The notes under the pieces are model-generated. The model was not told the DNA's origin and ran no database searches. It worked only from the letters and a program-made list of their open reading frames with translations. A DNA stretch of 64,000 bases from Ginglymostoma cirratum (taxonomy: Eukaryota). A program made the position numbers and the translations under genes. Shown here in pieces: positions 18,262 through 51,590 of the stretch. The stretch covers positions 35,729,435-35,793,434 of the forward strand of contig JAHRHZ010000145.1 in the NCBI GenBank assembly GCA_024137785.1, read 5' to 3'. Numbering within the stretch: the stretch's first letter is position 1; each line of letters begins with the position of its first letter.

Positions 18262-18509
18262 AGTTTGATATTCGGCATCCTCTGTGTTTGTTTCAGGTTT
18301 TCAGCATCCACTGTGATTCGCCTTTAATACATCCATGGCAGTTCAACACACATACAGAGTGATGCATACCAAATACCATCTTGATGAATATGATAATGCG
18401 GGCGGTTCATGTGTGTAAAAGAAATATGGACAGAAGGCAGACCATGTTTGTTTACGTGTGACTCTGACGATGCCATCTATGTCATTTTGAATCTTGATGC
18501 TCCTTTCTC

Positions 18510-27118: not shown

Positions 27119-27598
27119 TGAGAAAAGCCTTGATTAAGGCTATTTGGCCGTCTTCTTTTAAAACTTCAATTGTTTTGTTAAAGACTTAAATACCACAGGA
27201 AACACCAGACTGTAATTGTAGGGCTTCAGTGCAATTTACTCTGTGTTGGCTATAATGTCAATTTTGTGTTCTTTCTTCTGTTTGTCTGCCATTTATATAG
27301 TTCTTTTTTAATGTGCTTGTCTCTGCCCCACAATTTTTTTGCTGCCACAGTTCCCATTGTTTTTATGGGGCGCTGCTTTCTGCCCTTGCTTCCTTTACAT
27401 AGACAGCAGATTTTTGTGATACACATACTCTATTTATGTTTCAGCTCCAATATTTCAAATTATATGTAGTCTACTAGTTTATTGAGTTTAAGTCTGACAC
27501 ATTTACGCTTATTACTCACAAAGTTAGAATTTGTTAACAAGATCAACTTGGAACAATTTTTTTTGATGAAATTGCATTTCTTTTTAAAACACGTTTAG

Positions 27599-27787
27599 AT
27601 CTGAAGGTTACATGGTATAGTAAGCAGAAGGAGATCAAACAATCACGGTTCTTCAAGATGGTTCAGTTTGAAGATACTTATCAGCTGGAAATTGCTGAAG
27701 TCTACCCGGAGGATGAAGGAATCTATAAATGTGTGGCATCCAACTCTGCTGGCGAAGTGTCATGTACTGCAAACTTAAAACTGGAAG
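27599..27787 (+). CDS. TTN: Titin exon, C-terminal part of Ig I15 (human exon 44 equivalent)
   Basis: ttag/gtaagt, 189 nt; DLKVTWYSKQKEIKQSRFFKMVQFEDTYQLEIAEVYPEDEG. Absent from the ORF track. Confidence 0.95.
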
Positions 27788-28492
27788 GTAAGTTAGCTTA
27801 AATCACTATGTTTGGCTTTACATTGCTACATTTGTCATTATTTTCACACATCTGTTTTCCTGGTATGAACTCTGAAGCATTCTTCTGCCTGCAGTTGTTC
27901 TCGCTGTTTTGACATTGCCTGCGTCATTCATTTCTAAACATCGTCACAATTCGGCCAGCAACTGTGTTCACTTCTCGGGACAGCATGTGCATTTTGTGCT
28001 TGTACTGCTGAACACCATTTGTTGAAGCATTTTCATCAGCTTTAGACCTCATCAAGCAACTCACCTAGTCTGCACATCTTTTCATATCTATTGTATCTCA
28101 TGGCCAGTTCTTTCATCCACCTCTGAAGTAAACAATAGAGGCCATCTTATGTGCACTGTGGAATTCCACCATAACACAATCATCCTTTATCATTAAATAC
28201 GTTTATTTTGTTTAAAGGATCGTAATGTGTTACAACTGTAAATTATATAAGGAATAAAGTTTTTTTTATTTAATCATTCTGTTTGGATTTTTGATTAAGG
28301 TTAGGTCTTCTCTTGCAGTGGTTTCAATTTTAAGATTTTTCCAGAGAACTAAAAAATAAGATGAAAGTTTTTATCAAATGCACCTAAGTAATTCAAACAT
28401 AGAAGGACTTTTTTTTAAATGTTGCACGTCTGTGCTTTGGCTTTTCGTTTGTAATGCCAGTCATACAGTTCAAACCCTGATTTCCTTTCCAG

Positions 28493-28840
28493 GATATAAA
28501 AAGGTTGATTACATCAAAGACTCAGTATCTTATGTATGTCCTCGTTTGGTTCTTCTGAAGGAGCATCATAAAAAATTGCCTACTTTTATTAACAGCGTTT
28601 TAAGTAGGCAAGTACACAATAGGGCAGCGATCAAATTTTATGTGATAGTTTCTGGTGTCCCCAAATCAGAGACCTTAGGACTGCATAATGGACAGTTAAT
28701 GAAGCCAAGAAAAGTCCTGGTACTTCATTTTGATAATTCTGAGAACGATGCCACCCTTTTATTGATGCAAGAATAAAATTAGGATAGTGTTAACTGATTC
28801 AGCAATTTCAGCAAAGTACAGTTCAATAACTGCACACAAA
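28493..28840 (+). pseudogene. TTN: Decayed novex-1 (exon 45-like) pseudo-exon of titin
   Basis: Good acceptor tttcctttccag in phase 1. LPTFINSVLSRQVHNRAAIKFYVIVSGVPKSETLGLHNGQLMKPRKVLVLHFD resembles the human novex-1 Ig, but the core Trp is lost, there is a frameshift near 28760, a TAA at 28774-28776, and no clear donor. Confidence 0.75.
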
Positions 28841-29325
28841 ATAAATGATGCTGCTGAAAAATCTAGTGCTACTACATGTACAATAATTGAAGTTCAAACA
28901 ATTTATCCTCCATCTGCGACTTGCTGTGCTACTTTTGATGGCATATTTTATCCTTGATTTTTTTCTATTCCTCTTTGGTTTCACACGTCCTATAACTTCA
29001 TGTTTCTAAAATCTGATCACTTTTATGCACCACTTAAAAAACCTTTCATCTTCATTTATATAGATGCATTCATCTTCATCTTGAGAATTTGCAAGAGAAG
29101 AACTAAATCTTCATTTTTTTCCATGAATGCTGTTTTCTCCTATAGAATGTAGCAGATGTTATTGAGGAAAAGGACATGGGAGTTTTCCTCAATCAAGTGA
29201 ATTGCACTTCTTTAGCATGTGGCTCGCATGCTGGGTTGCCCTTTGGACAACATGAGCTGTTGCTTTTGTTATTTTGCCAGTCATGATTTAATATCATGAT
29301 TAATATTTTGTCTTTTGTTACTCAG

Positions 29326-30198
29326 ATTACAAAGTGCAAAGCATAGATAGTCAGAGCATAACAACTTCTGGAAAAGCTGTAGACGAATCCATCGTTTCAA
29401 AGACTTTTGAAGTATCAAAAATGCATGTGGAGTCCCCTGTGACCATAAAGCATACAAAGAACTATGCAAAAGAAATCAGTTCACAGCAAGAACATACATA
29501 CAGTGTTCAGATGTTTGAAAGTGTTTCCATGAGTTCATCGAGCAAGACCGTTTCTTCTGAAAGATGGGAAGAAAGCCAAAAAATTGCCAAGACAGAAACA
29601 ATCAGAAGTGGCTGCCAATGTCCACCAAAAATTCTGCAAGATATGGATAATGTCACAGTTTTGTTAGGTGAAACGGCATCTCTAAAATGTCAAGTCTTAG
29701 CATTCCCAAGACCTGAAATAAAATGGTACAGAGAAGACCAAGAACTTGTGGAAGTTAAGAGATTAAAAATTGTCACTATAACAGAGGATGAAGTCTTGAC
29801 GTCATCAGAATTAATTATACGAGAAGTTCAAGAAAAAGACACAGGGACCTATAGATGTAAAGCTTTAAATCTTTATGGTGAGGTTAAATGTGAAGCTGAA
29901 ATAACTGTTACTGCCCTTGAGGTTCCCAGGATTCTGCTTGAACTTAGTGATCTGAGGGTGAAAGCTGGTCAGGTGGCACAATTCATCTGTTCTTTTAGTG
30001 GGCAATCTTTCTCAGAGGTCATTTGGAGTCACAGAAGCAAAAGACTGCGAGAATCAGAAAGACTGAAGATTTCTCAGAATGGAAATGTCATGTCACTCAC
30101 AATCCTTAATGTGCATTTAGAAGATCAGGGACAGTACAGCTGTACTGCAAGAAATGAAGGTGGTGAAATGAAGACTACAGCTATACTAATAGTTGAAG
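29326..30198 (+). CDS. TTN: Titin novex-2-like exon (unique sequence plus two Ig domains)
   Basis: ctcag acceptor, gtggtt donor, 873 nt, phase 1-1; VQSIDSQS, YSVQMFESVSMSS and ESERLKISQNGN match human novex-2 motifs as recalled. Confidence 0.9.
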
Positions 30199-30498
30199 GT
30201 GGTTGTTTCTAATTTTATTTACAATCAAAATCCTGATCTATCCACTTCATTGTTTCGTTTCCAAAATAAGTCTAGTATCATGTTAAGAAGATCCTAAATT
30301 TACCATTTAATAGTAAAATATTGAGTTAAACATGTTTAGTTAGTGATTTATATAAAACTTAACACTAGATATTTCATCACACCAATCTGCATGTGTTATT
30401 CAAAACACTGAGTCTTGCTGTTATAAAATTGTACAAATATTTACTTTGCTGAAATTGATAAGACAGTTAACATTTATCCTAATTTTATTCTTGCATAG

Positions 30499-31014
30499 CT
30501 GAAGAATCAAAACCCAAAACAGGTGCAAAAATTCCCACTGATAGCAATTCAGATAGCACTAAAACTGAACAAAGACCACATATTGCATCTGATAGCAAAC
30601 TAGAAGTACTAACGAAGCCATCAAGTCCACCACCATCTTCAACAAAAAGGCCAATTCAAAGAGAGAAGCCAAGGAGCCATGATTATTATCCTGACATAGT
30701 GCCCTTCGATGAGCTGATAGACACTGGAGCCATAGCACCGACTTTCTTAGAAAAGTTGCCACCAGAAGTCATTGTACAAAGCGGAGAAGATGTTTTACTG
30801 TTTTGCCTTGTAAAAGGTGTACCATCACCCTGTGTACTTTGGCTGTACAACCAACGCATAGTTGAAGAATCTTCATTGTGTTCCATTAAACATGATGGGT
30901 TGCTATGCAGTTTAAAGTTACAGAAAGTCAGCCAGAGTCACAGTGGCACTTATTCATGCAAAGCGGTTAACTCTGCTGGAGAAACAGCGTGCAACACACT
31001 ACTTAGAGTGACAG
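30499..31014 (+). CDS. TTN: Additional titin exon (Ser/Pro/Lys-rich linker plus one Ig) between novex-2 and the exon-47 homolog
   Basis: gcatag acceptor, gttggc donor, 516 nt open in phase 1-1; APTFLEKLPPEVIVQSGEDVLLFCLVKGVPSPCVLWLYN...SGTYSCKAVNSAGE. Confidence 0.88.
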
Positions 31015-31446
31015 GTTGGCAATTGCATGCTTTGGTCCTTCCCAATGTGACTCTATCATGCATCTCAGCACATCTCATTGAAAGATTCTTTGCAGAAAGT
31101 CATCTTTTGACCTGTGGATTATTGCATTTCTTTTTTCCTGAAATCAGAATAGGCATGTTGAGGCATGTTTGATGGTTTGATACAGAACAAAATGGAAAAT
31201 GAACTTTTTTTTTGTAAAATCCTGGATGGTCTGAATTCACTTTGTAAATCGACCAGTTGCCTGGTACAGCCTTCTGGAAATCATAATTAGCAACTACACT
31301 TTAATGGTTTTGCATGTATGTTTCGGATGTCTTTGCATATTCCATGTATTCCTGCTTTCATTTTCTTACTTTGCATTTTTAATATAAGAATGGAAAATAG
31401 TATTTTATTCTTGCTATGATATTCAATATTATTCATTTCCATGCAG

Positions 31447-31497
31447 CTCCAAAGATTCAAGACAAAATTGAACAGCAAATAGAAATGGAAGTGAGAG
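31447..31497 (+). CDS. TTN: Titin micro-exon (human exon 47 equivalent)
   Basis: tgcag/gtaata, 51 nt; APKIQDKIEQQIEMEVR versus recalled human APESILHERIEQEIEMEMK. Confidence 0.9.
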
Positions 31498-32740
31498 GTA
31501 ATATTTTTATCATTATTCGATAAAAATTTCTTGAATTTTATATCAATTTTAAGTTCCAATTACTGCCCTGTATGCATTGGTATTTTGCCATCATAGTAAG
31601 TTGTGTTGCATTGCAAAATATCAAAATCGCATGTTATCTGTTTCTATCTGATTTGTTCACAAGTCTGGTTTGTTGTCATCATTTTCATATTGGTGTAAAT
31701 AAAATAATCCTTTAACCTCAATATTTATTTTACAGGCAACTTTACTTTTTTAACATGTATTAGTTCCTCACAATTCAGTCGAATTTCAATTTTGAATTGC
31801 TTATAATCGTAATTGATATGCTGCAACAGGAACATATAGAGATGCATTTTAGATTCTATTAAGAAGTATATAATGAGGTGTTTAAATCAATTGTCAATTA
31901 TTTGCCATTTCATAATTGAATGCTAGACGTATATATTTATTTTATGATTACTAGAATCAGTACTTCTGTTTGCATCGTGCATTTCTGCGTTTCCATTAAG
32001 GTTTACCATACTAATTGCATCTGGTATTTAGGAGGACTTGTAGGGTGCATTTTGCTAAAGAAACTTGGTCAGGGTATTTTTCATTTTTGTGTCTAGTTTT
32101 TCCATTTACATGACATCAGTCTATCTTCATGTATTCACACTGGCTTGCAGATAGCAGTATGTGTTCATGTACGCTGGCATTTTTGCGTAACATTGTGAAT
32201 CTAGCAACTATATTAGTTCGAATAAACGCCTTCTCATGCAAATTAGAAGGATTACTGTTACGGATAAATTTATTTCCTTCTATTTATTAAAATTTTTAAA
32301 TTATTTACCAAACTTGCTATACAATTTACCTATGCTGCAAGGATCAGAAAGGGCGTTTATTCTGCTGTCTGCAAGTCAGGTAAGAGCTTGTAATAATCTA
32401 GCTATCCCCCAATCATTATAGGGACAGATTTTACATTGCAAAACAAAACAAAATTCTGTCATGAGATCACTTTATGTTTCTTTGAAAACATATACTCTAA
32501 TGATTTTTGAGAAGAAATTGCTACAGTCTGAAGAAGGAACAAAGAACGAGCGATTTTCCTGCTCAGAATCTTTAAAAAAGAAAATGGTCTTGCGTTTATT
32601 CGAACAAATATGGTGAGTGAATTTTTATAGTACTTGTGAAAAAGCTTATGGATTACATTCATCATTTCATTGTATTACAGATTTGTGCTGAATTTAATTC
32701 TTATAATGTTTGAACTGAAACTTCATGCTTTTTTTTGCAG

Positions 32741-35700
32741 AATTATTTTTTGATGACGGGAGAGAACATTTGGAGAACAGAGAAAATATGCGGGAAGCGT
32801 TTTCTGATGCTGAAGATTATTTAGATCAGGGACTTGTTTCTGCTGATCGTTGTGCAAGCAGAACATCTTCTATAAGTTCCTGGTCTGAGAATTTCAGGCC
32901 ATCTTTTACTGAAAAGCTAAAATTCAAATCTGTAATGGAAGGAGAGCAAGCTATTTTTAGATGCAAACTTGTTGCCAGTCCTGCACCAAAGGTTGCATGG
33001 TTTCATAACAACAGACCCGTACATAAAGATTCAAGAAGGATTATTAAAATAGATAGCGCGATGCACATTCACAACTCAAGTTTGGAAATCAATAATGTAG
33101 AAGAGAAAGATTCAGGAAGTTACAGAATATTTGCAATAAACTCTGAGGGTTCAGCAGAAGCAACTGCATCTTTACTTGTTGCCCTTAAAGAAGAGCAAAA
33201 TGCAAATTATATCAGTTTTGTGAAAAGATCAGAAATGGCTCACAAGAGCATAGACTCTTTAGTTAAAAAACGTAATGCAAGACTTAGAGTTGATCTCCGA
33301 CATGTTGGATCTCCTTTTGATAAGAAATATCAGGTTCCAGGAATTTTGCATAAACAGCCAAATTCTAAAAGCAAACTGATGCGTACAATGTATTTTGAAA
33401 GAATGCCAATAAAACATGATCTGTTTAGTGATGATTCTGTAGAAATGCAGTCATCTAGGTTGTATGGGAGGATTCACAGCAAGGATAGTTTGATTGATGA
33501 AGACATTAAAATTAAATTACAGCTTTTACGAGAAGCTAAAAGGAGGAAAAGGTTTTCTCTTGCATTTTCTGAAGCATCATTTGACTTGGGCACAGCATCA
33601 ACTGAAGGCAATATGAAGTACAATTATGCTGACTTAGACAGAGGGCGCAGCAGAAGCATGGGGGACCTTGACCACATGGATTTTGATTGTTGTCAGCCTT
33701 ATTTTGTGCAAGGACATGAATTGTCATCTGGTAAATATTTGCAGAGAGAATATCCTGAATTTAAATATCGAATGGAATGGATATTAGGACTTCCTTCACA
33801 TGAAGTAGAACCTCAGAGAGCCCCTGAAGACAATATTATTGAGCAATCTTACAGAACAAAAGATATACATTCATTAAAAGAGCAAGTTCTGAAAGATAAT
33901 TTAACTCAAGAGACAGAACAGTCACAGAAAAATCAACACTGGCTAGAAGAACAAGAAACTGATGAATACTATTTTCAGAAAGAATATGATACAAGAAAAG
34001 AACTAGAGAGTGAACATTGTGAAGAACCACAGGCGCCGTCTAACCAATGGTTTGGATCCACCTCTGGTAAGCAGAGGACTTCACTAACTAAAGGGAAAGG
34101 AGTTATGCTTGAACCTTCCAAGTTTGAAGAAACAAAGTTACTTAAAGAAATACCACAATCTGAAGACAGTGATTGTACGGAAATGCTATTGAAGAAAGAA
34201 TTCCCAACATTCACCAGAACACTGATAAAACAAATTCCTGTGCCATTAAAGAAATATCCAAGTAAGTCTGACTTCAAGGAAGACCATGACTTACTTTCTG
34301 CTAAGTGGTCTGAAAGTTTAATGAGTATGCAGAGTTCACCAGCAAAGGAGACTGAAACTGACCAGTCAATGGTTGATGGTTCCAAAGCAACTGAAGTCAA
34401 TGTATCCAGGTTTGATGAAAAAGCTGAGATAATGAGAGAACGTACACAAAAGCCAAAGCCTTCTCCCTTAGAGGAAGAAGAAATCGCAACCATTTTCAGA
34501 GCAGCATTAGAAGATAACACGTTAGGAAGAAGCAAAACATGTCAAGTTGAAATCAAAGAACATCCAAATGCATTTCAAGACCAAAGGGCTGGGAATGTGT
34601 CAGTAAAACAAACATCTGGATTTGACCATATAACCTTTGATCAAATGAAACCAGTATCCAAGGATAGTGTGACAAGTATCTCTAAAGTCCACCATGAAGC
34701 CATACAATATGAAAATCAAGTTAAAGATTATACCCATATGATGACATCCTCTATTTTACCAGAGCAAAAAGCAACCTCAGGTTTTATCAGTTCTTTGGTG
34801 AAAGAAATACCAGAAGAAGTAAAAGATACTTCTTATAAATCCAGTAAGGTAGACCATGAGACACCTCTGGGACAACAGCCTGAGAGATTCATTCATGTAC
34901 AGAGAGATTTACCAACTCAGAGACCTGAGAGCCATCATATAATGTCTGATCAATCTGAATCATCAGTTAGCCAGGAAGAGATAATTAGTACACCCCAAAT
35001 CAAGCAAAATAAAACACAAGGTGAAGGACAGTTTATATTTTCCATCCATTCTTTGAGACATTCTCCCTTGACAGCAAAAACCAGAGAGAGTGCAACTTTT
35101 GCCAGAACAGTGATAAAACAAAAGCCAATGGAAACAAAAGACTTTCCAAATGAATTTAATGTTAAAGAAGAAAGTGAGCCAATTTCTGATAAAAGGCTTG
35201 AAAGTATTAATCATGCAGAGGAAGACACTCCAGCAGTAACATCTGAAGATATCCATGCAATCCAAATGCCTGGTCAATTTAGATCAACAGTAAATTTAGA
35301 TCAACAGTACAGAAAACATACAGAGGTGATTGGTGCATCTAAACTCAGCCAAAAAGAACAGTATGAAAGCAAGGTTAAAGACTTCACTTCAACGCCGAAC
35401 CCTTATAAATTTAACAAAGAAGAACACTCAACATTTGTCAGTTCATCAACAAGTGAAACAGCAGTAGAAGCAAAAGAATTTCGTTATGAATCCGAAGTTG
35501 AGGAGAGTGGCACAAAACCTCCAGATCAATTTGTTGGAGATTTTGTTAGTATGATGAGAGAGTTTGGAACAGAGCTATCTCCAGCTGCCCATCCTGCACC
35601 CGACAGAGATTTTGTAACAGAAATATCTAAAGATGTCCATGTTGTACCTAACGGAGATTTTGTGGCAGAGGTATCTGAAGATGTCCATGGAATACCTACT

Positions 35701-37888
35701 CGGGATTTTGTAACAGAAATATCTGCAGATGCCTATATTGTGCACAACAAAGATCTTCTGGCAGAAATATCCAAAGATTTCCATCCTGCAGCCGACAGAG
35801 ATTATGTAACAATAACATCTAAAGATGTCCATACAGTGCCCAATACAGATTTTGTAACAGAAATATCTAAAGATGTCCCTATGATACCTGACAGAGATTT
35901 TGTAACAAAAATATCTGCAGATGCCCATCCTGCACCCGACCAAGATTTTATAACAGAACAATCTAAAGATGTCTATGTTGTACCTGAAAGAGATTATGCA
36001 ACAGAAATATCTGAAGATGTCCAAACAATATCTGACAGAGATTTTGTAACAGAAATATCTAAAGATGTTCATGCTGTATCTGACAGAGATTTTGTAACAG
36101 AAATATCCAAAGAAGTCCATACAGTACCCGATAGAGATTTTGAAACAGAAATATCTGAAGATGTCCATACGATACCTGACAGAGATTTTGTAACAAAAAT
36201 ATCAGAAGATATCCATGCTGCATCTGACAGAGATTTTGTAATAGAAATATCTAAAGATGTCCATGCCGCATCTGACAGAGATTTTGTAACAGAATTATCT
36301 AAAGATGTTCATGCTGCATTTGACAGAAATTTTGTAACAGAAATATCTAAAGATGTTCATGCTATACCTGACAGAGATTTTGTAACAGAAGTATCCAAAG
36401 AAGTCCATACAGTACCCGATACAGATTTTGAAACAGAAATATCTGCAGATGCCCGTCCTGCACCCGACCAAGACTTTGTAACAGAAAAATCTAAAGACGT
36501 CTATATTGTACCTGAAAGAGATTATGTAACAGAAATATCTGAAGATGTCCAAACAATACCTGACAGAGATTTTGTAACAGAAATATCTAAAGACGTTCAT
36601 GGTGTACCTGATAGAGATTTTGTAACAGAAATATCTAAAGATGTCCATGCTGCATCTGACAGAGACTTTGTAACAGAAATATCTGCAGATGTCCATGCTG
36701 CACCGAACATCAATTTTGTAACGGAAGTATCTAAAGATGCCCAGCCTGTGCCTGACAGGTCAAAACCAATGGTAAAACAAATAGAGATAACCACCTTTTC
36801 TAAAGTCTCCCATAAAGAGTTACAACCTGCAGATACAACAGTAAGCACTGTTCAAGTAGTACATCCTTCTTCGCCAGATGGCAAACTTGAGCCAACCTCT
36901 TTTAGTTCATTGATAAGAGAAACAGCAATAGATACAAAAGAGCCTGGATATGGATTTGAACTTATGGAAGAACATGAAACAGATTTTGACCAGCAGTGTA
37001 CAGGTTTTGACCGTGTACAAAAGGATGTGCAGTTAGGGAAACCTGAAGAAGGTCATGAGCAAACCAAATTGGCAGAAAATCACATTGAAATAATAAGTGT
37101 AGCTAAAATCAAACAGAAAGAGCCACAATATGAAGCAAAGCTTGTGAGCTCCCCCTGGATGGTAAAGCCTTCTCCTTTACCAGAGGAAATGGAAACTTTA
37201 ACTTATGTCAGTGCATTGAAAAAGCCATCTCCAATTGGCAAAATAGGATCAGGTGACAAAGCAGAATTTAGGGAAAGCCATGAGACAGCTCTTGTCAGTG
37301 CTACCAGAATGCACAAAGACTTCCTGAAAGAAAATCAAGAAGACAGCCATGGAACATCTGATCAATCAACAGATGGAGAAACAGCAATGATTAGCACATC
37401 TGAAAGTATCCAGAAAGAATCACAACAAAAATGGAAAGTTGAAAATAACATCCAAACAGCAAAAATGCCTTCCTTAACTGAGGAAAACAAAACATCAGGT
37501 TTCATCAGTTCGTTCATGGAAGAGACACCAACAGAAGTACCAAGCAGCCAATATGAATTTGTAGCTACAAAAGGGCCTCTGAAACAAGAGACTCCTGCAG
37601 TCAAACATTGCCCACCTACGTTTTTCCATCATATTGCATCTTCTGAAATTAAGCAAGGAGAATCATGTGTGCTTGAGTGCCAGTTTTATGGGCACCCACT
37701 ACCGACTGTAGTTTGGTACAAGGATGAACGCCCAATTTCTCGAAATAGGGACTATCATATTCACTCCACAGAAAACAGCTCTACATTGAGTATTGGGTGC
37801 ACTTGCAAAGAACATGAAGGAGTATATGCATGTGTAATATTCAACCAATATGGAACTGCATCTACATTTGGGACCGTTGTAATACAAG
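32741..37888 (+). CDS. TTN: Titin novex-3, first part (two Ig domains plus a long repetitive unique region)
   Basis: ttttgcag acceptor, gtaaga donor, 5148 nt, phase 1-1; ELFF...AFSDAED...RPSFTEKLKFKSVMEGE...AINSEGSAE matches the start of novex-3. Confidence 0.93.
35590..36741 (+). repeat. Coding minisatellite: 24 x 48 bp (16 aa, consensus HxxPDRDFVTEISKDV) inside novex-3
   Basis: 24 indel-free units counted directly (24 x 48 = 1152 bp); recurring DNA core gacagagattttgtaacagaaatatctaaagatgtccat. Confidence 0.97.
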
Positions 37889-37998
37889 GTAAGATTCACC
37901 ATTCTTTACTGATGAATTTTTTAAAATTAAAGTATGTTGCAATTAGATATTTATGAATTAGGATTTTCAATTAAGATAAAATAACATTTATTTTCCAG

Positions 37999-40900
37999 AA
38001 CCAGAACCAAAGTTGTTTGAAGAGTCTTTGGAAAGGTTTGATATACGTGTGACGGAGGCACCAGAGAACAAGACTGAAGAAGATAATGTTGATCAGCTGA
38101 TTGAAAACGAGATGGAGTCGTATTTTCCAGAATTTGCTGTAACAAGATCCACATTACAATTACCAAAAGTTTCAGCACCCCAAACATGTCCCAGAGGTTT
38201 TTCTTTACTTCCTTCCCCTGTTGAAATTAAAATAACTGCTCCAACCCCAACACCAGAGCAAGATGAGGAACGTAAAGAGTTACTGCAAGAAGATGAATTT
38301 GATTCCAAGGATTCATCTCAGGAACCGCTGTCACAGACTGCAAAGCATAAATTTACTTTCTCTTTTGACGTAATTTCTGAACCGCCACAAGTCGTGAAAG
38401 AACTAGATAGGATTTGTTGTGCAGAAGGAGAATCCGTAATGTTTGAATGTTTAATTTCTGGAGAGCCAACACCTGTTGTTTCATGGATCCAAAATGACAG
38501 AGTTTTAACTGGTGATAATAGCAAGCACCGATTTGAAGAGAGTGGAGGCAAATATAGATTGTACATTGAAACTGTCTCAGCATCTGATATGGGGAACTAT
38601 AAGTGTGTTGCTAAAAATAAAGCAGGAGAAGTACAAAGTATATCAAGTCTTACAGTACAGCCTGTAGTGCATAGTTTTATTTGCCATCTGAAGGATACTG
38701 AGTCATCTGATGAGGAAGCAGAGTTGTCAGTTAGCCGTTTTCTATTCAATCTAAGTAAAACAGAACAGGTTGAAGACATTGAGCAGCAAAAGCAATTATC
38801 AGTACAGGAAGGGCACAGGGATGCTTCTCCTTTATTTAGCATTAAAGAACAAGCACTTAATTTTATTCCTGAAGATGAAGGTTCTGTGACTTGCATTGGT
38901 GATGAATTTTCAAGTAAAGTTTCATCTTTAAGGGAAGGGAACAATAAAGCAAAACTGAGCTCATTGAATTCCTTTTCTGAAGAAGTTTCATCTTTAAGGG
39001 AGGAGGGTGATAAAAAATTCACAGATTCAGCAATGCCCTTTGGTGAATTTTCAAGCAAATGCTCATCTTCAGTGAAGGCTGGTAATAACATTGCCGCAGA
39101 CTTTGAACAGATAGATCAAAAAGTGTCAAATAACACAGTAGAAGAGACATGTTCTATCAGCGAATATTTACGGTCTTTTGATGCAAACCAGAAGTTATCT
39201 AAAGATTGGAAAACGGGAAGGGAAATAGAACAAAATGGGGACAAATGTGCCTCGGAAGGTGAAATGTATGAGGATAGCGTATTTTCAGAAAGTGTAATTC
39301 AGCAAGTCGCTAAAAGTAATGGGGCAGAAACAACAGAAAATGTGTCCAAGATGGAGTTAAGTGGTAACTTAGCATCTCCTAAACCTGACTATGATGTTAG
39401 TGTAGATCCAATAGGAACAACCACAAATAAAGATGAGGGGAGTGAAAATGAGGGGGTTTCAATTGCACAGTATCTCCTTTCCGCAAGACAGGAAGAAGCA
39501 CAGATTCACGAAGAGGCAAATAATGAGACATTTGGCTACGATGAATCTGGAATAACTTCGATGGAGGTTGAGGAAGTAACATTTGCTGCTGTTTATGACT
39601 ACTATAATCAAAATGAAGAGTGGACACGGTCTCTTTCTCCAGAATCTGAAATGTCGATTGAAATTAGCAGTACAATTAGTGATGATGTTTCGGAGAATGA
39701 AAGATTTTATACACCACCTTTGGCTTCTGAAAACTACCGATCTGCTGTGTCTGCAGAGGCTTTCCATACCCCACCTCAGTCTCCTGGCTATGCCACTCCT
39801 CCAGAAATATTGCCTTTACTTAATGTGGGTCGATCTTCTGGTGCTTTACTAGAGAGGTTTCATACACCACCAGAATTTTTCAGAACTCCAATAGACGAGG
39901 GTATTGAAACAACTCCTCTTGAGTCTGTAAGTCTTGCTACTGAAGAGCAAAGATCAGAGTTATTTTCCACACCACCACAAGAAACTGAAGCAAAAGGAAA
40001 TGAAATGCCACCTGCATTTATCAAACCTCTTGTTAGAAAAAGAATTCACGAAGGAGGCACACTTACATTTATCATTGAGGTAATTGGTTGCCCAACTCCA
40101 AATGTTAAGTGGTATAGAAAAAGGTCATTATTAGAGCCAAACCATAGAACTAGACTTGAGAGAGAGGGAGGTTTGTGTTTATTGGTAATCCATAGTATTC
40201 AGAGAGAAGATGAAGGAGAATACACTTGCAGTGCTGTAAACATCGTAGGGGAAGCCAAAAGTGTTACTCGGGTAGATGTTTTACCTCAGGATGGAAGGTC
40301 AATTGCATTGCCACTCCCAGTGACTCATCAACACGTTATAGAGTTTGATGTGCAGCAAGGCCAAACATCAAGGTCTCCTTCACCTCAAGAAATTCTTCTG
40401 GAAGTTGAACTTGATGAACATGAAGTGAAAGAATTTGAAAAACAGATAAAGATTGTTACAATTCCCGAATTCACTCCTGACAATAAAAACATGGTTATCT
40501 CCCTGGATGTTCTTCCTTTGATGATGTCTGATGAACATAACGTTGACTTTTTAATAAAAGATAATGAAGATGTGAAAATTGACTTTGAGGTCACAGAAAT
40601 GCCCCCACGATTTATTAGCCATATTTTTGACTTTGAGATTCCAGAAAACACTGATGCAGTCTTTGAATGCTCAGTAACAGGTATTCCTAAGCCTGAGGTA
40701 ATGTGGTTCAGAAATGATTCACTTATAACATTCGATGGCAAGAAATACATTAGAACAGATACCCCTAATCATAGTCTTAAAATAACCAATGTTTGTCCTT
40801 CTGACAGCGGCACATACACTTGCAAAATAGTGAATAGTGTTGGAGAAACAACATGTAGAGGCTATCTTACAGTAACAAATGCATGTATGGCACTGACAAA

Positions 40901-41510
40901 AGCAGGTGGTAGAGCTGTTGCTGCTATATCATTAACTCGTGCTCAGGAACGTCCCCAGGAATTAGATGTTGATATTGGTAATCCTTTACTGCAGAGCAAT
41001 CAGGGTTCTGAAATCGAGGTTGAGTTTGACATTGAACAAGGTAGAGATGATTCTCAGAAATCAGTGAAGCTCGTAGCCTTGACAGAGAATGCAAATGAAG
41101 ATAAAGGAGAGAAAAGTGTGAACATTAGTTTTGACGTATTTGCTGAGCCTGCCAAGGAGGAGACTATTCAATTTAAGGGAGAAGCTTCTGAAAACTGTTC
41201 ATTTGAATTTCAAGTGACAGAAACTCCTCCAAGATTTGTAATATCCCTCCTTGACTGTATCACCAGCATTGGGAGCATGGCATCTTTTCAGTGTGTTGTG
41301 ACTGGTACTCCAAAACCCAATGTGATTTGGTATATGAATGACCAAGTACTTGAAGATGGCAACTGCATCATTGAGGAAAAAGACTCTGGGCATCATTATT
41401 TGAACATTGCACATGTTACAGAAAGTGATGCTGGAGTATATAAATGCAAAGCTGTTAACAAAGCTGGGGAAGCAGTTTCAGAAGCAGTTTTAAAAGTGTT
41501 GTATTTGTAA
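37999..41510 (+). CDS. TTN: Titin novex-3, second (terminal) part: four Ig domains and stop codon
   Basis: ttttccag acceptor in phase 1; KHKFTFSFDV, ITSMEVEEVTFAAVYDYY, SPSPQEILLEVELDE motifs; ends TAA at 41508-41510. Confidence 0.93.
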
Positions 41511-41548
41511 AATAGTACTTTCTGAATGTCCTGTGACATAGTTTGAAT

Positions 41549-41554
41549 AATAAA
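41549..41554 (+). terminator. Candidate polyadenylation signal of the novex-3 isoform
   Basis: AATAAA 38 nt after the novex-3 stop, followed by T/GT-rich sequence. Confidence 0.55.
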
Positions 41555-44500
41555 AAATGATTTTTGTTTTAGATTTATGGTACATTTATGAATTTGCTCA
41601 TTTCAAACATGAAAATTGAATTGGTCTTACTGAACGGAACATTTATATCTTCTTAATTGATGTTCCTGAAAAGATGGGTCATTTATAGTGGATGTATGTT
41701 GATTTAAAGCAATTTTACTGTGCAGTGGTTTCTCAGTAGTGGAGCTTTGATTTTATTATGATTGATGTATTAGCTGGAAAACAACTATTGCAAAAATAGT
41801 GATTGTTTGGAATAGGAATTTAAAATGGCCTGGCTGAGGTCAAACATAGGATTATGATAAATATTGATATCTTGAGGGGTTTTATATCAAGCAGGTTAAC
41901 CAAGACTGACTTGATAGGCATATTTATACTGAAAACATAATGTCCTATCTATGCAAGTGGTTATGCTAAAGGCCAAACCTGTTGAATTAGCATGATAACT
42001 TTGAAGGAAACTTAATGAAGGTCCTCAACCTGCTTGTAATTAATATTTTGCCTTTTTTTCCAAGTATGTCACCTTTTGATTATGACTTTCCCCAATTAAT
42101 TGTATTATCTGCTTTCAAAAACACTGTCTAAACTCCTCTAAAATTGTTGTAGTGATACAGGAAAATTCTGTCATTCTGAATTCCTTTCTTTTACCCCAAT
42201 ACCTAGCTTCTGCATGAAGCTGTGTCTGACAACTCAGTTGAGTTGCACAATTCTCTACATGCAGAGGCCCAGGAACTAATGTCAACAGAGGTTTGCATTC
42301 AAACACAGATTCTTCAGTGATAGGTACCAGCGATATGCTTTTTGGAGATACTTACTTCATACTGCATGCATGTTTTTCGTTGAAAGATTAATCAAGATAT
42401 TGAAATACTTTAAAGAGAGTATTTATCCCAATTGGTATACAACCACTGAATATTTTTGTTAACATTTAACCTAACTGAAGATGTGAACTGACATACAAAG
42501 ATCGTTAACTCTTTGAATGCTATAATTCTTCACTGTGCAATTATTTCTTGGTGCATGTTGGCTTGAAAATTTAGTTAAGAGGAAATACAGAGCGAAAAAA
42601 TATTTTCCAGATCCTACTTTACAGTTTTCAGAAGTAAATGTGTAGTTTGACAGTAGTACTGAGTATATTGCAGAGTCCTGTTTGATGCAAAATGCATTTG
42701 ACTAATTGACACTCAAGACTAGCTCACACAAGTAGCTCAAGTTGTTGAGTTACAAAACCAAATAGCTGAAATGTTTAGAGTTGTCCTTTCCTGCTTGGTA
42801 TCATTACCGATTTGGACAAAGGTGCAATTTAGGAAATGTTTTAATTTAGGCTAAAAAAATTCATGTGAGTGATCCTAGAGTAAATTCACTAAACGCACTC
42901 ATATGGCATTCCTCTGGCCAATTTTTTAATTAGGATCATTAATCCCAATTATTTACTGCTGCAGTGCCACAATGAAAATCCCCTGAGCAAAGTCAGATAA
43001 GTGTTTTAAACAATTATTTGCTCACATCATGAACATCAATTTCTTTCCTAATATTTTACTGTTGTATAATTGGTGCTGATAATTTTGAGCTGTGTGAAAT
43101 TATCATCTCTGGAAACTGCCTAATACTTTGGAAGGAAGACAAAGCTGAGGGATTGTGATAGAGGAAGCTGAAAATGATACCAATTGTCATATGAAGGACT
43201 AGGATGCATACTTTCATGATTATTAGTCACAGTTCTTGATTGGATATATCAGGACAAGAACTATTGCAGTAGACATGACAGAATAGTTGTGTTGGTTATG
43301 ATTCAGAGGATTTTTATTTGTAGGTTGACTTCATTTATTATATGCTTCTGTTTTTATTCATTATTTGCTTATTTACTTTTAGATCCCTCTTGTATTTACT
43401 GTTTCTCAGCAAATGTAGAAGAGAAGTATCTGGCCCCAGAATCTTTTAACCAGAAAGCACATAGAGCCCACTCAACTCTTTTCATAAATTTCTTATCGTG
43501 TAAATCAGAACATCCTTGGCATTCCTCATTCGTCGTATGTTATCTTTTTCAATTGAGCTCAGAAACTTGTATCGGGAATTCCCATATAGAAACCACATCA
43601 TGTGACATAGTTCATTGGAGCACCTATGTGTTACATCAGCACACAGGTTGGACGTTCAAAATTTGGTCTATTTATTGTGCGCTTGTCATTCTATTGTTAA
43701 TTTTAATGGCGTTGCTTGGAGGCCAAGAGGGCTTGAGAGATTGTTCAGGTTCAGGATTAAGAGTACACTCGACAGAGGTGCAGAACTTACTGATGCGTAT
43801 TACCAGAGTTGCTTCTGGATGAAGTAGTCTGTGTGGCACAATAGATCTTGATGTAGTGCTGAGAAAGATTATCCAGTCTGTCAGGTAAATCTTTTGAGCA
43901 GTTTCCATAATTATGGAAGTAGAGTAATAAGAACATATATTCATTGTGTCCAGAGATTACCACCATGACATAATATGGATGATTTCAGAGTTATAGTAAA
44001 GCTACAAAGGAAACTGAGTTCTGTGGTGAGTTTGCAAATAATCATATTCTATGTTTGTGGATCATTATTTTGATTATCACTAGCATTTTGACATTTGCTT
44101 TCTAATTTGTTAATTATACATTAAAAATGTATAATTTCCATTGTAGTCAATGTTTAATATTTGTCCAACACGTATAAATTACTTGGTTATGAAGAATAGA
44201 CTCTAGTGGTTTGAATGCTACAAATTCCAATTCTTTTTCAAAATTATGTCCTTCATGCCATAAACATAAATTAATATTTTGGTCACTATGTTTATCAGTT
44301 ATGTTTTCACAAGTACAACTATCTGGTTGTGTGAAAGCATAAGTTGTCTTCCATGATTTACTTGCCCCATTTGACATGATTTAAGACATGATGTAAGACA
44401 TGATGTTTGGGAAAAAGGGGTTAGACTTCCATCTTTTATGAGAAGTTGCTTAACACAGACATCATTCATTCCTTGTACAGGTTTCTGTTGCTGTATACTG

Positions 44501-44757
44501 TGAATATATCATGTTCTGCTGCTGTATTGAGTAGTGAATGATAGTACTTCTGGTTTTATTTTCAAGTAATAATGCGATTGATACATAAGGCATAATTTCT
44601 TTCACTTATCTCTTAAAACAAAAGAGCTATTCCAAAGATATGGCTCCACAGGTAGTAAAGGTCATTTCACAGTGGTCTGTGAACATTGTTAAATCATTTG
44701 AGTGTGGAATCAACATGGTAAATGTTATCCTGCACTTAAGAGATGTCCACAAAAGCT

Positions 44758-45469
44758 AGGCTGAATTTATCAGGCCCTGAGTGACAACAAGAGGTGAGGA
44801 AATGGGTGAGGTTAACTGGTAAAGTAGCAGGGAGTTATGTTAGCATGACTGTCTTTGATTGTCCTGCTGCTAGGAAAGTTTTACATTGGCGAGTTGCAGA
44901 ATGTGTTACTATCTACTCCATGGAGGGAGATGTTCAATGACATAATTTAAGGGTTCAAGTGTGAACTAATTTATGGATCTGCCAGCATGTATTGTGCCTC
45001 TTTCATGGGTCCACCAGCTTCATGGAGATGGCTATACTGAATTAGCATAGTAATGAGGCAGATGCATCATAGCCCGAGGGTCAATGCCCCAGTAGGCTCG
45101 AAAGACAACCTCCACATACCCAAAGATCCATTGACGAGTTTTCTCTGCGATTGGTGTGGCCTATCTCCCTCAGCCATCCAGAATTTTAGTTTTCGCTTGA
45201 GGGTCTGAGGTTCCTGTATATCCAGGGGTCTTATTGTCCCTCAGCAGCGGTGGCCTCACACAGTGTATTGTTGGGACTTCAGGTCTGCTAGTCCAGTGGC
45301 CCGGCAACATCAGGAAACCGGCCACCCACTATTCATAATTAGATGGTGGACCCTCAAGTACAGCCAATTGAAAGATTGCCACCAGTAAAAATCACTGAAC
45401 CAGTCCCATCTTTGCAAGTGGGTTTCACCCTGAAGTTAGGGTCCCAAAGACAACCGTAAAATTCAGCCT
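44758..45469. mobile_element. Putative non-autonomous Harbinger/Tourist-like MITE
   Basis: Perfect 11-bp terminal inverted repeat AGGCTGAATTT...AAATTCAGCCT enclosing a GC-richer island. Confidence 0.5.
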
Positions 45470-46486
45470 TACGTTCTTTATGGATTGCTAGACAGCGATC
45501 ACGAACAGGAACTCCTGATTTTCTTTTGCTATTGCCTGAGGATGTTAAAGCCAATGTCAGGACATCATTGCTACTAAGTTAAGAGCAGATTAGCAGGGAT
45601 CAGGCTTTGAGTGGAATGGTGCTACAGAAGTGTTGCATCTATCCTCCGAACCACTGGACCAGGCCCTAGCTTATTAAGTTGCTTTTAAAACATGTAAACC
45701 AAGGTTCACTATTGGTTTGACAACATTGGGTTTCCAAAAGATTAACAGGGTTTACAAATGATATCTGGGTTATTTTTCAGTCTGAAGCTTAGCAGTCTAT
45801 GAAACTCTTTGTTTTGATAGTGTTGTTAATAAAGTAAAAGTAGGAAGACATTTTATTTCAGCTCGCTTATGATACAAATACTGCTCGAATATGATTTATT
45901 TGATTGAAAAATATGTATTTCAGTAACAGAATAAAGTTTATATTAGAAATTATTTGAGCCTTAAGACAATTTTTAACATGCAATACATTTTTTGTGCGGT
46001 AATAAATTGTATCAACGTGCCTCTCCTGGAATGTCGTCATGGCAGAATGTATCTCCACCAGCAGCAAACATCAAACTGCAAAGTCCCTTTTTACTCACTT
46101 TGATTAGGAAATGGAGAATATAGATTTGACATTAAAATTATCTGTAAATAATTGTTCTGGTTTTTCAAAAGTCACACATTTAGCACCAACAAATCTCAAT
46201 AAAGTTGAAGTTAAATAGTTCAATTTTAGTTTGAAACATGACAGCAAGTCTTTATTTATGTAATGAGATGTTCAAAGTAGCAGAAAAACACCATCCTGCC
46301 TTTTCTGACTATTTCTATCTACTTTGGATCGCAGACTATTATAGAAACTGTATTTGTATTATTTTGAAGCAACTTGAGTTTATCATGCAAACATCTTATC
46401 ATTATATTTTGTAATTTTCTTCTAATTTCCAGTATTACTCACATTCAATACGTTTTCTAAAGTTAAGCATCTTATTTTTTATACAG

Positions 46487-49400
46487 AATTTTCTAGCTCT
46501 GTTACCATTGCTGCTGAAGATAAGAGGGAAGATTTCTACAGTAGTGAACTTCATGTGTCAGACAAAACATTTGAACTCAAGCCTGAAACTGCGACCCTTT
46601 CTAGCGTTTTGGAAATAACCACTGATGCTAAGCCTCTACAAACAGTGCCAGTATTCATTAAGCGCATTTCTAGTATAGAGGTAGTTGTGGAAGATGTAGC
46701 TAAATTCTCTGTCACTGTTACTGGATTCCCAAAGCCCTCTATTCAGTGGTTTCATAACAGTAAAAAATTGACTCCTTCGTCAAACTTCAAATTTGTTTAT
46801 GATAGGGATGAATATAGCCTAATCATACCTTATGCAAAATTTACAGATGAGGGAGAATATAGTTGCTCTGCTACTAATACACTTGGAGAGACTTCATGTA
46901 GTGCATACCTGAAGATCAAACCAAAGGAAGGGTTTAAGAAATCTTCTGCAAAGCCCCCACTTGCAAAATTAGCAGATAGAAAAATGCCAGTGATGCCAAC
47001 AGAAATCATACATCCACCTAGGGGTCAGCCACCACATTTTTTCCAGGAACTTAAGTCTTTGCAGTGCCCAGAAGGCCTGCCCGCTGTATTTGAGTACGTA
47101 GTGATAGGCGAACCAATACCAGAAGTTTTTTGGTACAAGGAAAACAACCAAATTCATCAGAGTTTGCATTGCAGCCTTAGTTCTAACTCTGACGGCTCTG
47201 GTTCATTAACTATTAATAAAGCACAGAAAGAGGACAGTGGCTTGTATTTCTGCAAAGCATTTAATCAGTTTGGGGAAACAACTTGCACTGCAGAGCTAAT
47301 TGTGTTCAGTGGTACGTTTGTTACCACTGAACATACAAAACAGGAAGTTGCTCATAAGCAGACATATAAAAAGTCTGTAAGTGACCATGCCACAGAGTCA
47401 CGTCTGTTCATGGTAACATTGCCTGGTGATGCTCAGGCTGAGTTACAAGACAGAGATCAACTGGTCTATACGATAGCTTCTGAAGATAAACATTCTGTTC
47501 ACAGTGAACAGACAGGCATGTTGCATGAGGTAACAGTCTCTGCTGCTGAAGCAACAATTGCAGGGAAGAGTCAGATAGTAATGCATTCACAAACTACTCA
47601 AGAGAGTCTAGGATATGTAGAGCAACATTATGAACCTATTAAAAGTCCACCAATACTTGAATTGTCAAGCACTGAAGTACGGTTAGACGCTGCCCTTCGT
47701 TTGCCCACAGTTGAGGAGCAAACAGTCATTCCGAAGGAAAGTAGCTTTAGCATTAGAGATTCACCTACTATAACGGCTAAAACAAAAAGAAAAGAAACAA
47801 GCATCTTATCTGAGGAAAAGCATCTAATTCCTAGCTCCGGGACTTCAACTCTTGACATTGTAGAAAAAGAAATATCAAAAACAGAGCCTGCATATCCTTT
47901 ACACAGGTACAAGATTGAGGGACATCAAGAACCTCCCAAAGAAGCATTGTTTGCTTTTGAAATTCCCGACGGACAGAAATGTGAAATACAAAGAGAAAGA
48001 AAAATGGAGGTTCATACAGCCGTAGCAACAGAGAACAAAAGAGTAAGACATGAAATGACAAAAGACATACAAACATTAGATGCAGCAAGAAAGGCAAAGT
48101 TGTCAAAGGAGTTGCCAAAACCATTCTTGACGTCTGTTACTGAAAGCCAGAAATCACTGCCAAAGGAATCTCTGTTTGAAGTGCAAAATGGTGACATACG
48201 GCAAGCTTCCTTGATGAAAGATAAGTTTGTTAAAACTGCTTTAACTACAGAAGAAAAGCAACAGCTCATGGGTGAACATGCTGATATAATAATTGGTTTA
48301 GATAGTGCAATCTCAATAACGTCAAAAAAAGAAGAAAAGAAACCTTTGCATTTACAAATTGTGCAGGGACAGGACACTCTGCCCAAAGAGACAACTTTTA
48401 CTTTTGAAGTACCTATAGAAGAGAAAGCTGACACCAGAAGAAGCCCAACTTTGCTACATTCCTTACTATCAGAAGAGCAACATCTTATACCTCAAGAACA
48501 TACAACTCCGTTATCTGATGCAAAAGATACCACAATAATTAAACCTACAAAAGAACATATGCCTATTTTTTGTCCTCATTCTGTGATGACTGCATGCATT
48601 CTTCACAAGGAAGATCTTCTACCTTATGAGAAACCAGCTACTCGTATGGCAGGACACAGACTTGAGAAAGCATATAGCTATGCTGCTGTTGTAGAAGAGA
48701 AACCAGAATTGCTAGCTGAACAAACTAAAATGCTTGTAATGGAAATTAAAAGTTCAAAGGCTGAAGCCAAAACTGAGCTTCTGCCACAAGAGTCTCTTCC
48801 ATCTGTAACTGTACCAATGCACATAGCAAAGGAGAAAATGCTTACCATTGAGGGTAAAGAACAGCGTGCAATCATAAATAAATTGGATGACACAGTCAAA
48901 CAGTTCAGTACTATAACCGAGAACAAGGTAGTGGAAGATGGTTCTGTTGCCATGTTTGAAGGCTTAGATGCAGCAAGCTGTGAAGACAAATATGAATCGA
49001 AACTCCCTTCAATTTCTGTTCAGGTTAAAGAAAAGCCTGTAGCTATTGAAAGCACCACAATGTTAGAAGCTGCAGAAAAGGATTTTGCAGCAAGAATCCA
49101 ACAGGGACAGTCAGTAAGATTTCCATTGTTGCTTCAAGAAAAACACCTCATTGAAGAAGAACATTCTTCAGCAATCGCAAGATCGGAAAGGAAAGTTCTA
49201 AAGGTAGAAAAGCAACCAAAAGAGAAATTTCTCACTCATGTAATACAAGAAAGTGAGGTACTCCAAAAAGAAAAAGTACTTAATGTTGAAGTTCCCCAAG
49301 CAGCCACCTTAGATGTTGGTGTACAGATTAGAAAAGCATTGCAATCTGCTCTGGCAAGTGAGCAATGTGTTCTTTCATCTATCTCATTGGGTGGCATAGA

Positions 49401-50347
49401 AGAGATGGAGATTAAGGAATTAAAAGTTCAAAAAGAACCCAAGTGCATTTTATATACATATCAAGTTACTAATGTCAATCCTCCAATAGACATAACTCTG
49501 TCATTTGAAGGAGAATATCCTCAGAAAGCTGACTTAAGAAAAGAATTGACAGCTGCTTTCCATGCTATTACTCATGAACAATGGCGTGCTTTTCTGGCTG
49601 AACAACTGGATACAATCCGTCCACCAACTGATATGTTAGAAAAATTACACATTAGCATTACTCCTGCTAAAGAGATTTTCTCACCTGAGGCTGTCACCAT
49701 TTCTGAAAGCACCTTTGAGGCCGGGATGCAGTTGACTGAACAGAAACTCCAGACAAATGTTACAGTTTCCCAAGATTATTCTGTAATCTCAAAGAAGGCA
49801 GCTGTTCAAGAAATGACAACAACCACTGAATCAGAGGGTTTTACTCAGGATTTTAAATCTGTGGAAACTGTTGAAGAAGTGACAATAGTGAGTCACATGA
49901 GAGATGTTGGTGGTACAATAATTACTACAGATGCCCCTTCAGCACCTGTTCCAATCGAACAGCCAACAGAAATTCTCAAAAAAGAGAAGGAAATGGAAGA
50001 AGTTATAGGTACTCATATTTCTAAACCAAGAAAGCTAGGTGAAACACCAATAAAGCCCCCCAAAGACAAACCAGTAATTGTTAAAGGACTGACAGACATC
50101 ACTGTTGATGAAGATAGTGAAGTAAAGTTGAGCACAGTCATAACTAAAGTTAACAAGGTAAATTGGTATATCAATGGGAAACGAATCACTTCAAAAAATG
50201 AGTTCAAATGTTTGCAAGAACGTGACACTTACTCACTTATAATCAACAAAGTACAGAAAGAGGAGCATCAAGGAGAATATGTCTGTGAGGCACTGAATGA
50301 AGCTGGAAAAGCAACTACTTCTGCAAAACTCACAGTTATTATAAGAG
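46487..50347 (+). CDS. TTN: Titin N2B exon (I24, I25, N2B unique sequence, I26; human exon 49 equivalent)
   Basis: tacag/gttgga, 3861 nt, phase 1-1; EFSSS start, KALQSALASEQ, and FKCLQERDTYSLII...HQGEYVCEALN of I26. Confidence 0.95.
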
Positions 50348-51311: not shown

Positions 51312-51590
51312 TGCCTCCATCTTTTAAGAGGAAGGTCGAATCACTGGAGGTGATAGTTGGGCAGCCTACTCAGTTTGAATGTGAAGTTGACCCCATTCCT
51401 GATGTAAGGTTCCAGTGGTTCCGAGCAAGAGCTGAACTTCGTGACAGTGAAAAGTACAGCATTGTGACCGAGAAATATACCTCCATCTTGAAACTTTTGA
51501 AACCCCAGCTAATTGACTGCGGTGACTACACGTGTAGAGCATCAAACAGGTGTGGCAGTGTGAGCAGCACAGCTAAACTGATTGTGATTG
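51312..51590 (+). CDS. TTN: Titin exon, Ig I27 (human exon 50 equivalent)
   Basis: gtag/gtaagt, 279 nt; PPSFKRKVESLEV...VRFQWF. Confidence 0.95.

Follow-up and report, generated by a model that had tools for sequence, protein, structure and literature searches.

The 64-kb window analysed here (64,000 nucleotides (nt) of Ginglymostoma cirratum DNA, read on the plus strand) covers the I-band, in its proximal and middle parts, of one vertebrate titin gene, including the novex and N2B exons that lie between the immunoglobulin (Ig) domains I15 and I27. On balance, our findings favor a model in which the layout of this cassette region is likely ancestral, novex-2 and an additional Ig exon (hereafter the extra exon) behave as one block in a related shark, novex-1 is dead, novex-3 is split in two exons, and RNA helices likely steer the choices among them. 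This model is built on the exons themselves, two splice routes in RNA contigs of a related shark, an intact extra exon in a bird, the frameshifting exon 48' and a series of complementary stretches, all of them observed directly. A bolder and still tentative version would have RNA switches run the novex region, with a two-state structure kept from shark to bird gating exon 48' and the amount of novex-3, and, in sharks, the dead novex-1 acting as an antisense lock that couples novex-2 and this fourth novex exon so that three Ig domains of the spring are switched on or off together.

At its start, novex-3 shares 97% identity with Stegostoma proteins and 93% with Chiloscyllium proteins, and exon 49 has the three Igs round a long unique sequence that define the titin N2B exon. 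For comparison with other vertebrates, a metagenome scan with the novex-3 alignment returned five loci, of which L001 is a bird titin novex locus whose novex-3 matches the best of the named bird proteins at 80-89% identity; L002-L005 belong to other Ig proteins and were dropped. Exon 44 is 189 nt long in the window, in L001 and in human (PMC5852582, Table 1). A preliminary description of the window had listed seven modules after exon 44, and its coordinates and phases are borne out by splice-site, length and Pfam checks (Table 1): read directly at the splice sites, all seven are entered in phase 1, and all except novex-1 and novex-3b leave in phase 1 as well. The accompanying statement that any subset splices in frame holds for these seven modules and fails for the locus, since exon 48', an eighth exon absent from that list, shifts the frame and leads to a stop. 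Nor is there support for phase symmetry as the mark of a combinatorial toolkit. Among 23 other Ig open reading frames (ORFs) of the window, 3 yielded no motif call, and phase 1 gives the best donor in 19 of the remaining 20; the exon lengths of L001, modulo 3, are those of the shark locus; and human exons 44, 45, 46, 47, 49 and 50 each have a length divisible by 3 (PMC5852582, Table 1). The all-phase-1 pattern is generic to titin, with no excess over its normal run.

Table 1. Features of the titin novex/N2B region, in positions of the 64-kb window
Feature	Positions	Strand	Remarks
Exon 44 equivalent (second half of I15, I15b)	27599..27787	+	189 nt; upstream donor common to the routes
Novex-1 (exon 45), dead remnant	28493..28897 (3' end approximate)	+	by homology; stop at 28774; donor lost; no Pfam I-set
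Inverted copy of extra-exon acceptor region, 5' duplex arm	28765..28818	+	54 nt inside dead novex-1
Novex-2 (exon 46 equivalent), two Ig domains	29326..30198	+	873 nt; two Pfam I-set
Branch-point/pyrimidine region of extra exon, 3' duplex arm	30442..30496	+	reaches 2 nt before the AG
Extra Ig cassette exon (linker of 80 amino acids (aa) + I-set)	30499..31014	+	516 nt; one Pfam I-set, E=1.5e-16
Intron after extra exon	31015..31446	+	4 GCATG motifs, conserved just past donor
Exon 47 (micro-exon)	31447..31497	+	51 nt
Conserved stem-loop H1+H2	32140..32379	+	closes on conserved 5' splice-site-like sequence at 32379
Helix H1	32140-32156 x 32363-32379	+	17 bp
Docking stretch	32207..32229	+	pairs either in H2 or in H3
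Helix H3	32207-32229 x 32592-32614	+	covers exon 48' donor
Helix H2	32220-32235 x 32347-32362	+	15 bp
Exon 48' (poison exon)	32512 or 32527 to 32612	+	101/86 nt, alternative acceptors
Novex-3a: I18, 1475-aa spacer, I19	32741..37888	+	5148 nt = 1716 codons; two Pfam I-set
Tandem repeat in novex-3a, 25 x 48 nt (16 aa)	35557..36758	+	TRF score 1224
Phase-1 intron splitting novex-3 at the end of I19	37889..37998	+	110 nt, GT-AG, frame-breaking
Novex-3b: I20-I23, stop codon	37999..41510	+	four Pfam I-set; AATAAA at 41549
N2B exon (exon 49): I24, I25, unique sequence, I26	46487..50347	+	3861 nt; three Pfam I-set
I27 exon (exon 50)	51312..51590	+	279 nt

A re-organisation special to this lineage had also been proposed, and the bird contig, which contains the extra exon together with exons 47 and 48', speaks against it. 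Bounded throughout by AG and GT, the exons of L001 measure 189 nt (exon 44), 375 nt (an intact novex-1), 582 nt (novex-2), 519 nt (extra exon), 57 nt (exon 47) and 83 or 98 nt (exon 48'). Its extra exon is open and 49% identical in amino acids to that of the shark, and over the last 93 codons the two agree at 76, 81 and 53% of first, second and third codon positions, a pattern that points to purifying selection. The donor and the motif directly after it are conserved between shark and bird; the intron that follows carries GCATG, which we take to be an RBFOX-type site, at 9.3 per kb, vs 0.7-1.3 per kb in two background segments of 12-13 kb, and its bird counterpart holds four copies in 422 nt. 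The extra exon is also found in a gecko model (P0030). Being intact in bird and gecko, the extra exon is not shark-specific and is likely ancestral, which would imply that it was lost or is unannotated in mammals; no exon between 46 and 47 is given for any of the 8 species in Table 1 of PMC5852582. A first homology search had found Heptranchias alone, no orthologue appeared among the 150 matches listed by a HMMER search with the extra exon, where multi-Ig proteins dominate, and the Atlas returned generic I-set clusters. Exon 47 has 51 nt in the window and 57 nt in L001 and in the related shark whose RNA is described below, the 6 nt by which the window falls short of the latter lying at the exon start (31447-31450); 57 nt in human and 51 nt in zebrafish are on record (PMC5852582, Table 1). 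Taken together, the novex/N2B cassette likely represents the ancestral layout of jawed vertebrates.

Novex-2 is 83% identical to the Heptranchias protein XP_067843003.1, a model labelled 'myosin light chain kinase-like' in which a two-Ig novex-2 is joined to the extra exon. The window's exon qualifies as novex-2 by its place after novex-1, its unique N-terminal part and its Ig I17, and departs from the described form, with one Ig and a direct joint to exon 47, in having two I-set domains and in being joined to the extra exon in RNA. In the bird, novex-2 encodes one Ig, which matches the second shark Ig at 55%, and its 5' part matches in DNA. By eye, this bird Ig (L001 3180-3200) begins like the first shark Ig (window 29622) and continues like the second (29919), a chimeric look that would fit the deletion of one Ig in bony vertebrates. 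Between the two novex-2 Igs, at 29910, the window has 12 nt fewer than the shark that provided the RNA; Heptranchias has those 12.

Direct evidence on how these exons are used comes from four of seven listed sequencing runs, none of the seven recorded as RNA; the four were aligned to 27400-32570, and among them X1 is informative for splicing, X2 is used below, X4 gave short chance pieces and X6 gave none. X1, from a species 94-96% alike to the window in exons, was read as RNA from its behavior: apart from one short piece, its contigs cover exons only, with GT..AG joints. These joints are 27787->29326 (depth 7.8), 30198->30499 (11.3), 31014->exon 47 (11.3) and 27787->exon 47 (20.4), so that both novex-2 splice sites are used. 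Neither a joint from I15 to the extra exon (27787->30499) nor any use of novex-1 was seen in the X1 contigs, and a joint from novex-2 to exon 47 (30198->exon 47) was not seen in these contigs either, which drop rare forms. Two routes are thus present, I15 to exon 47, or I15 to novex-2, the extra exon and exon 47, and use looks two-state; the second route adds three Ig domains as one block and, if contig depth means anything, is a sizeable minority. The preliminary description had foreseen isoforms without a human counterpart from a lineage that could use any subset of modules. Such an isoform exists in the three-Ig block, on a layout that is largely ancestral; free use of subsets finds no support in this one run of contigs, where two routes were seen.

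It might be argued that novex-2 and the extra exon instead end a short separate transcript, by read-through of the extra-exon donor. XP_067843003.1 does read past this donor into the conserved stretch and then stops, and truncated novex-2 forms with retained introns are known in tetrapods (PMC5852582). In X1, however, the donor at 31014 is spliced to exon 47 and 31033-31378 has no cover, and neither AATAAA nor ATTAAA occurs in 31015-31446, which leaves this explanation very improbable.

Novex-1 is a remnant here, and not a working exon. Its position after exon 44 and its homology to I16 identify it, the best matches being lizard and teleost novex-1 (35-43% identity over 63-91 aa; 43% over 63 aa in the lizard, ending at 28767), and its AG acceptor at 28493 aligns with that of the bird exon. 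An open frame of 375 nt, a donor and evidence of splicing are all missing: the lesion comprises the stop at 28774, a net insertion of about 30 nt and the absence of a GT where the bird donor sits, and the X1 joints skip it. Residues 1-32 of XP_067843003.1 start in novex-1 with a change of frame that, by eye, lies elsewhere than the lesion in the window, hinting at a separate novex-1 frameshift in a distant shark.

What occupies the broken end of novex-1 is an inverted copy of the acceptor region of the extra exon (Table 1). The two arms are 89% identical over 55 columns (E=4e-12) and form the strongest inverted self-match lying wholly within the studied region in a self-comparison. As a duplex they reach -65.8 kcal/mol, compared to -26.2 +/- 2.3 kcal/mol for shuffled sequences, with none of 60 shuffles as strong, and their mean pairing probability is 0.87 in a 1860-nt fold. 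The copy starts where the homology to novex-1 stops and takes the place of about six codons, a configuration suggestive of a template switch. X2, a DNA run from another species with no long piece over 29465-32570, where the 3' arm lies, spans the 5' arm without insertion or deletion, its 34 gap letters all falling elsewhere.

These observations allow us to propose how the coupling could have arisen. A template switch would have placed an inverted copy of the extra-exon acceptor in novex-1, breaking that exon. In the pre-mRNA, the copy would pair with the acceptor, looping out novex-2 and hiding the extra exon, so that both are skipped; if I15 is instead spliced to novex-2 first, the copy would leave with the intron, the acceptor would be freed and the extra exon joined. 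With its arms on either side of novex-2 and the acceptor of the extra exon masked, the duplex predicts either both exons off or novex-2 followed by the extra exon, which are the routes seen in X1.

The second candidate switch lies in intron 47 and concerns exon 48'. Between exons 47 and 48, a conserved exon that shifts the frame has been described (PMC5852582); it measures 85 or 100 nt, depending on an alternative part of 15 nt. The exon found here agrees with it in its 15-nt alternative acceptor and its frameshift and, when joined to exon 47, has a stop 81 nt before its end. It is matched upstream of I18 in 18 of 124 related proteins, which begin in it or run through it and come from chimaera, sharks, rays, frogs, turtle, teleosts and birds; in automatic models from other species it is joined to novex-3. 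In X1 the only piece near it is one of 169 nt from 32445, starting in the intron and without a joint. Several of the models numbered P0005-P0130 start inside exon 48', in the frame that is broken by an extra base in the window.

Eight runs of at least 9 nt in intron 47 are identical between shark and bird, of which five are arms of the helices H1, H2 and H3 and two are the exon 48' acceptors. The pair probabilities of H1 and H2 are 0.99 and 0.95 in the shark and 0.93 and 0.86 in the bird, and the H1+H2 region folds with z = -4.62 (0 of 200 shuffles). When partners for the docking stretch are ranked over 10.6 kb, the two best lie at orthologous sites in shark and bird, and with each of the two none of 200 shuffles is as strong. 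The core helices are identical in both species; one outer H1 pair is broken in the bird, and H3 shows two one-sided changes from A-U to G-U that keep the pairing. The traits of competing-pairing systems are present, namely conserved complementary stretches, mutually exclusive docking partners and overlap with splice signals; Rfam gave no match in 27500-32500. As suggested by these stretches, the helices would form a two-state switch at exon 48': in the H1+H2 state the exon 48' donor would be free, the poison exon included and the novex-3 message degraded, and in the other state H3 would cover the donor, the exon would be skipped and productive novex-3 made, so that the switch would set the novex-3 dose. 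H3 as the main fold was considered and is contradicted by the global fold.

At 32379 (L001 6318), a strong 5' splice-site-like sequence lies in a 21-nt run identical with the bird, at the base of H1, where no exon is known. It could be a decoy donor, a recursive site or the end of a second poison exon (32151-32379, with a stop); the 'acceptor' of that putative exon is an H1 arm, and X1 has no cover there.

Several points weigh against the model. The RNA evidence is one run from a related species, its tissue not given, in the form of contigs whose depth is a poor measure, and the read alignment ends at 32570; the inverted copy was read in the window and the splice routes in that other species. 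The gecko record carries the flag UNVERIFIED_CONTAM, and in its model the Ig of the extra exon is truncated. With its 5-6 mismatches, the novex-1 duplex may be a scar that is decaying. In H1, H2 and H3 no compensatory double change was found in the comparison of shark with bird, so that the structure rests on complementarity and conservation in two species, and protein-binding sites could explain the identity within intron 47. In addition, the global fold favors H1+H2 over H3 by 7 kcal/mol in the shark and 12 kcal/mol in the bird, and H3 would therefore need help.

Some of these points can be assembled into a different explanation, in which layout and routes are the same, the inverted copy is a mere scar, the identity in intron 47 reflects protein-binding sites, and splicing factors, for example at the GCATG cluster, set the coupling together with splice-site strength. 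In line with this notion, the bird keeps the extra exon without a comparable duplex (-26.5 kcal/mol in L001, with 12 of 40 shuffles as strong), the GCATG cluster after the exon is conserved, the duplex arms mismatch at 11%, and the helices lack compensatory changes. However, the conserved runs of intron 47 are complementary to one another in three helices, a result matched in 0 of 200 shuffles; a 54-nt duplex at -66 kcal/mol over the branch region should affect splicing, selected or not; and the routes in X1 are the two that the duplex predicts. We regard this explanation as rather unlikely and retain helices as the likely agents of exon choice.

Regarding novex-3, the exon pair of the window agrees with the definition of six Igs (I18-I23), a stop and a polyadenylation signal (PMC13649281), through two I-set domains in novex-3a, four in novex-3b and an AATAAA 39 nt past the stop, and departs from the single exon of 6-8 kb reported for bony vertebrates (PMC5852582, Table 1) by the 110-nt intron. 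Unspliced novex-3 ORFs of bony vertebrates run through the split point. P0011, an unspliced, ray-like ORF, runs 9 residues into this intron before its stop, and novex-3b of Mobula hypostoma is a separate model, which together indicate that the intron is common to rays. The intron holds an ATTAAA hexamer at 37926, and the novex-3b acceptor is followed, 6 nt further on, by another AG at 38004.

The preliminary description had also suggested that novex-3a serves as an internal spring of full-length titin, which we consider improbable. Its wider form, in which modules are freely combined and novex-3a either is an internal 1716-aa element (37888->46487 or ->51312) or is skipped to give a short novex-3 (31497->37999), draws on the facts that every such join is in frame, that the donor of novex-3a, which lies at an Ig border, is of the strong GTAAG type and that the 1475-aa spacer is close to the N2B unique sequence in composition (P+E+V+K 0.32 v 0.34). 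We collected 126 novex-3 proteins, dropped five (four that are not titin novex-3 and one ending at I18) and kept 121, of which 116 have I19. After I19, 113 of these enter the start of novex-3b, two enter I20 and one, P0011, ends in the intron; in each of the six named models from cartilaginous fish, I19 is joined to novex-3b. None of the 116 joins I19 to N2B or I27, a weak test, as the set is limited to models of up to 5000 aa and full-length titins lie outside it. Pulling the other way, a teleost model (P0062, Genypterus) joins the middle of novex-3 to N2B and three models join I23 to N2B; P0062, however, is a single automatic model without I19, and its joint is not at the novex-3a border. 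Moreover, the novex-3b acceptor lies 110 nt from the donor, as against 8.6 kb for N2B, and X1 gives no sign of free combination among the upstream exons. Long spacers are also common. Between I18 and I19 the spacer measures 901-1840 aa in other cartilaginous fish, 786-2011 aa in 18 named teleosts, 303-1358 aa in frogs, 312-361 aa in mammals and 165-181 aa in birds, and a long spacer without a split is normal in teleosts and most frogs. Free combination is accordingly hard to credit. In the model that we favor, novex-3a would join novex-3b across the 110 nt to yield the ordinary six-Ig terminal novex-3, the intron likely being always removed.

Some further observations concern novex-3 and the rest of the window. 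The 16-aa repeat of novex-3a occurs elsewhere, among the 126 proteins, only in Stegostoma and Chiloscyllium. Three lamprey proteins (P0097, P0284 and P0285) are novex-3 homologues with I18 and the novex-3b part, from which it follows that novex-3 predates jawed vertebrates; I19 was not matched in these lamprey models. Novex-3 entries within P0005-P0130 are filed as separate genes, under unc-89-like, obscurin or uncharacterized. Intron 43 (13898-27598) splits I15, is 13.7 kb long with a 400-N gap at 17862-18261, and compares with 5.0 kb in human and 0.6 kb in frog and zebrafish (PMC5852582). A palindrome at 5158-6412 (86% over 1263 nt) consists of two inverted mobile-element fragments, and a smaller one, made of a short repeat, lies at 25851-26057. 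Frames at 5432-5770 (minus strand) and 5792-6052 (plus strand) within the former resemble a GIY-YIG endonuclease of Penelope-type elements.

The relevance of these findings lies in the amounts of novex-3. In the adult heart it accounts for 20-25% of titin protein, and it declines when the heart fails (PMC13649281); the choice of novex exons is independent of RBM20 with regulators not identified, and the exon 48' region is conserved in human (both PMC5852582). A concrete and mutable candidate for a regulator of novex-3 would be a conserved switch of helices at exon 48'. In addition, the extra exon shows that exons are missing from the map of non-mammalian titin and that an Ig module was likely lost in mammals, and the inverted copy in novex-1 would be an uncommon instance of a mutation that kills an exon and then becomes a splicing regulator. 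A search without subscription papers turned up no description of the extra exon, of a split novex-3 or of these helices; it did not cover figures, which may already draw the extra exon.

Compared to exons 44-50 of human and tetrapod TTN (PMC5852582), the shark locus is alike in exon order and homology, in the lengths of exons 44 and 50, in the 15-nt acceptor and frameshift of exon 48', in a six-Ig terminal novex-3 and in cassette lengths divisible by three. It differs in its dead novex-1, its two-Ig novex-2, the extra Ig exon within 'intron 46' and the two exons of novex-3; RNA helices are not mentioned in the available text of that source. The connectin of the elephant shark (PMC12241362) is likewise a cartilaginous-fish titin with Novex-I, II, III and N2B, expressed as N2BA in heart and N2A in muscle, and there a novex segment is an optional part of full-length N2A titin, with Novex-I found in muscle N2A. 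In contrast to the window, Novex-I is expressed in that species, and the available text names three novex exons, and no extra exon, exon 48' or split novex-3.

The RNA helices are the strongest new leads of this work, and their putative function would make them a variant on a known splicing system. In Drosophila Dscam1, pairing between a docking site and selector sequences acts in splicing, and the window resembles it in that a single docking stretch can pair with either of two partners, one excluding the other. As in known long-range pairing systems, a duplex would loop out an exon and hide a splice site. The poison exons of BRD2 and BRD3, which are under conserved long-range RNA pairing (PMC10789245), share with exon 48' a frameshifting exon accompanied by conserved complementary stretches. 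The shark system differs from both BRD2/BRD3 and Dscam1 in that it is known from sequence, without covariation, in that the partners lie at 5' splice sites and not before tandem duplicated exons, and in that one of its duplexes appears to owe its origin to a mutation within an exon that once was coding.

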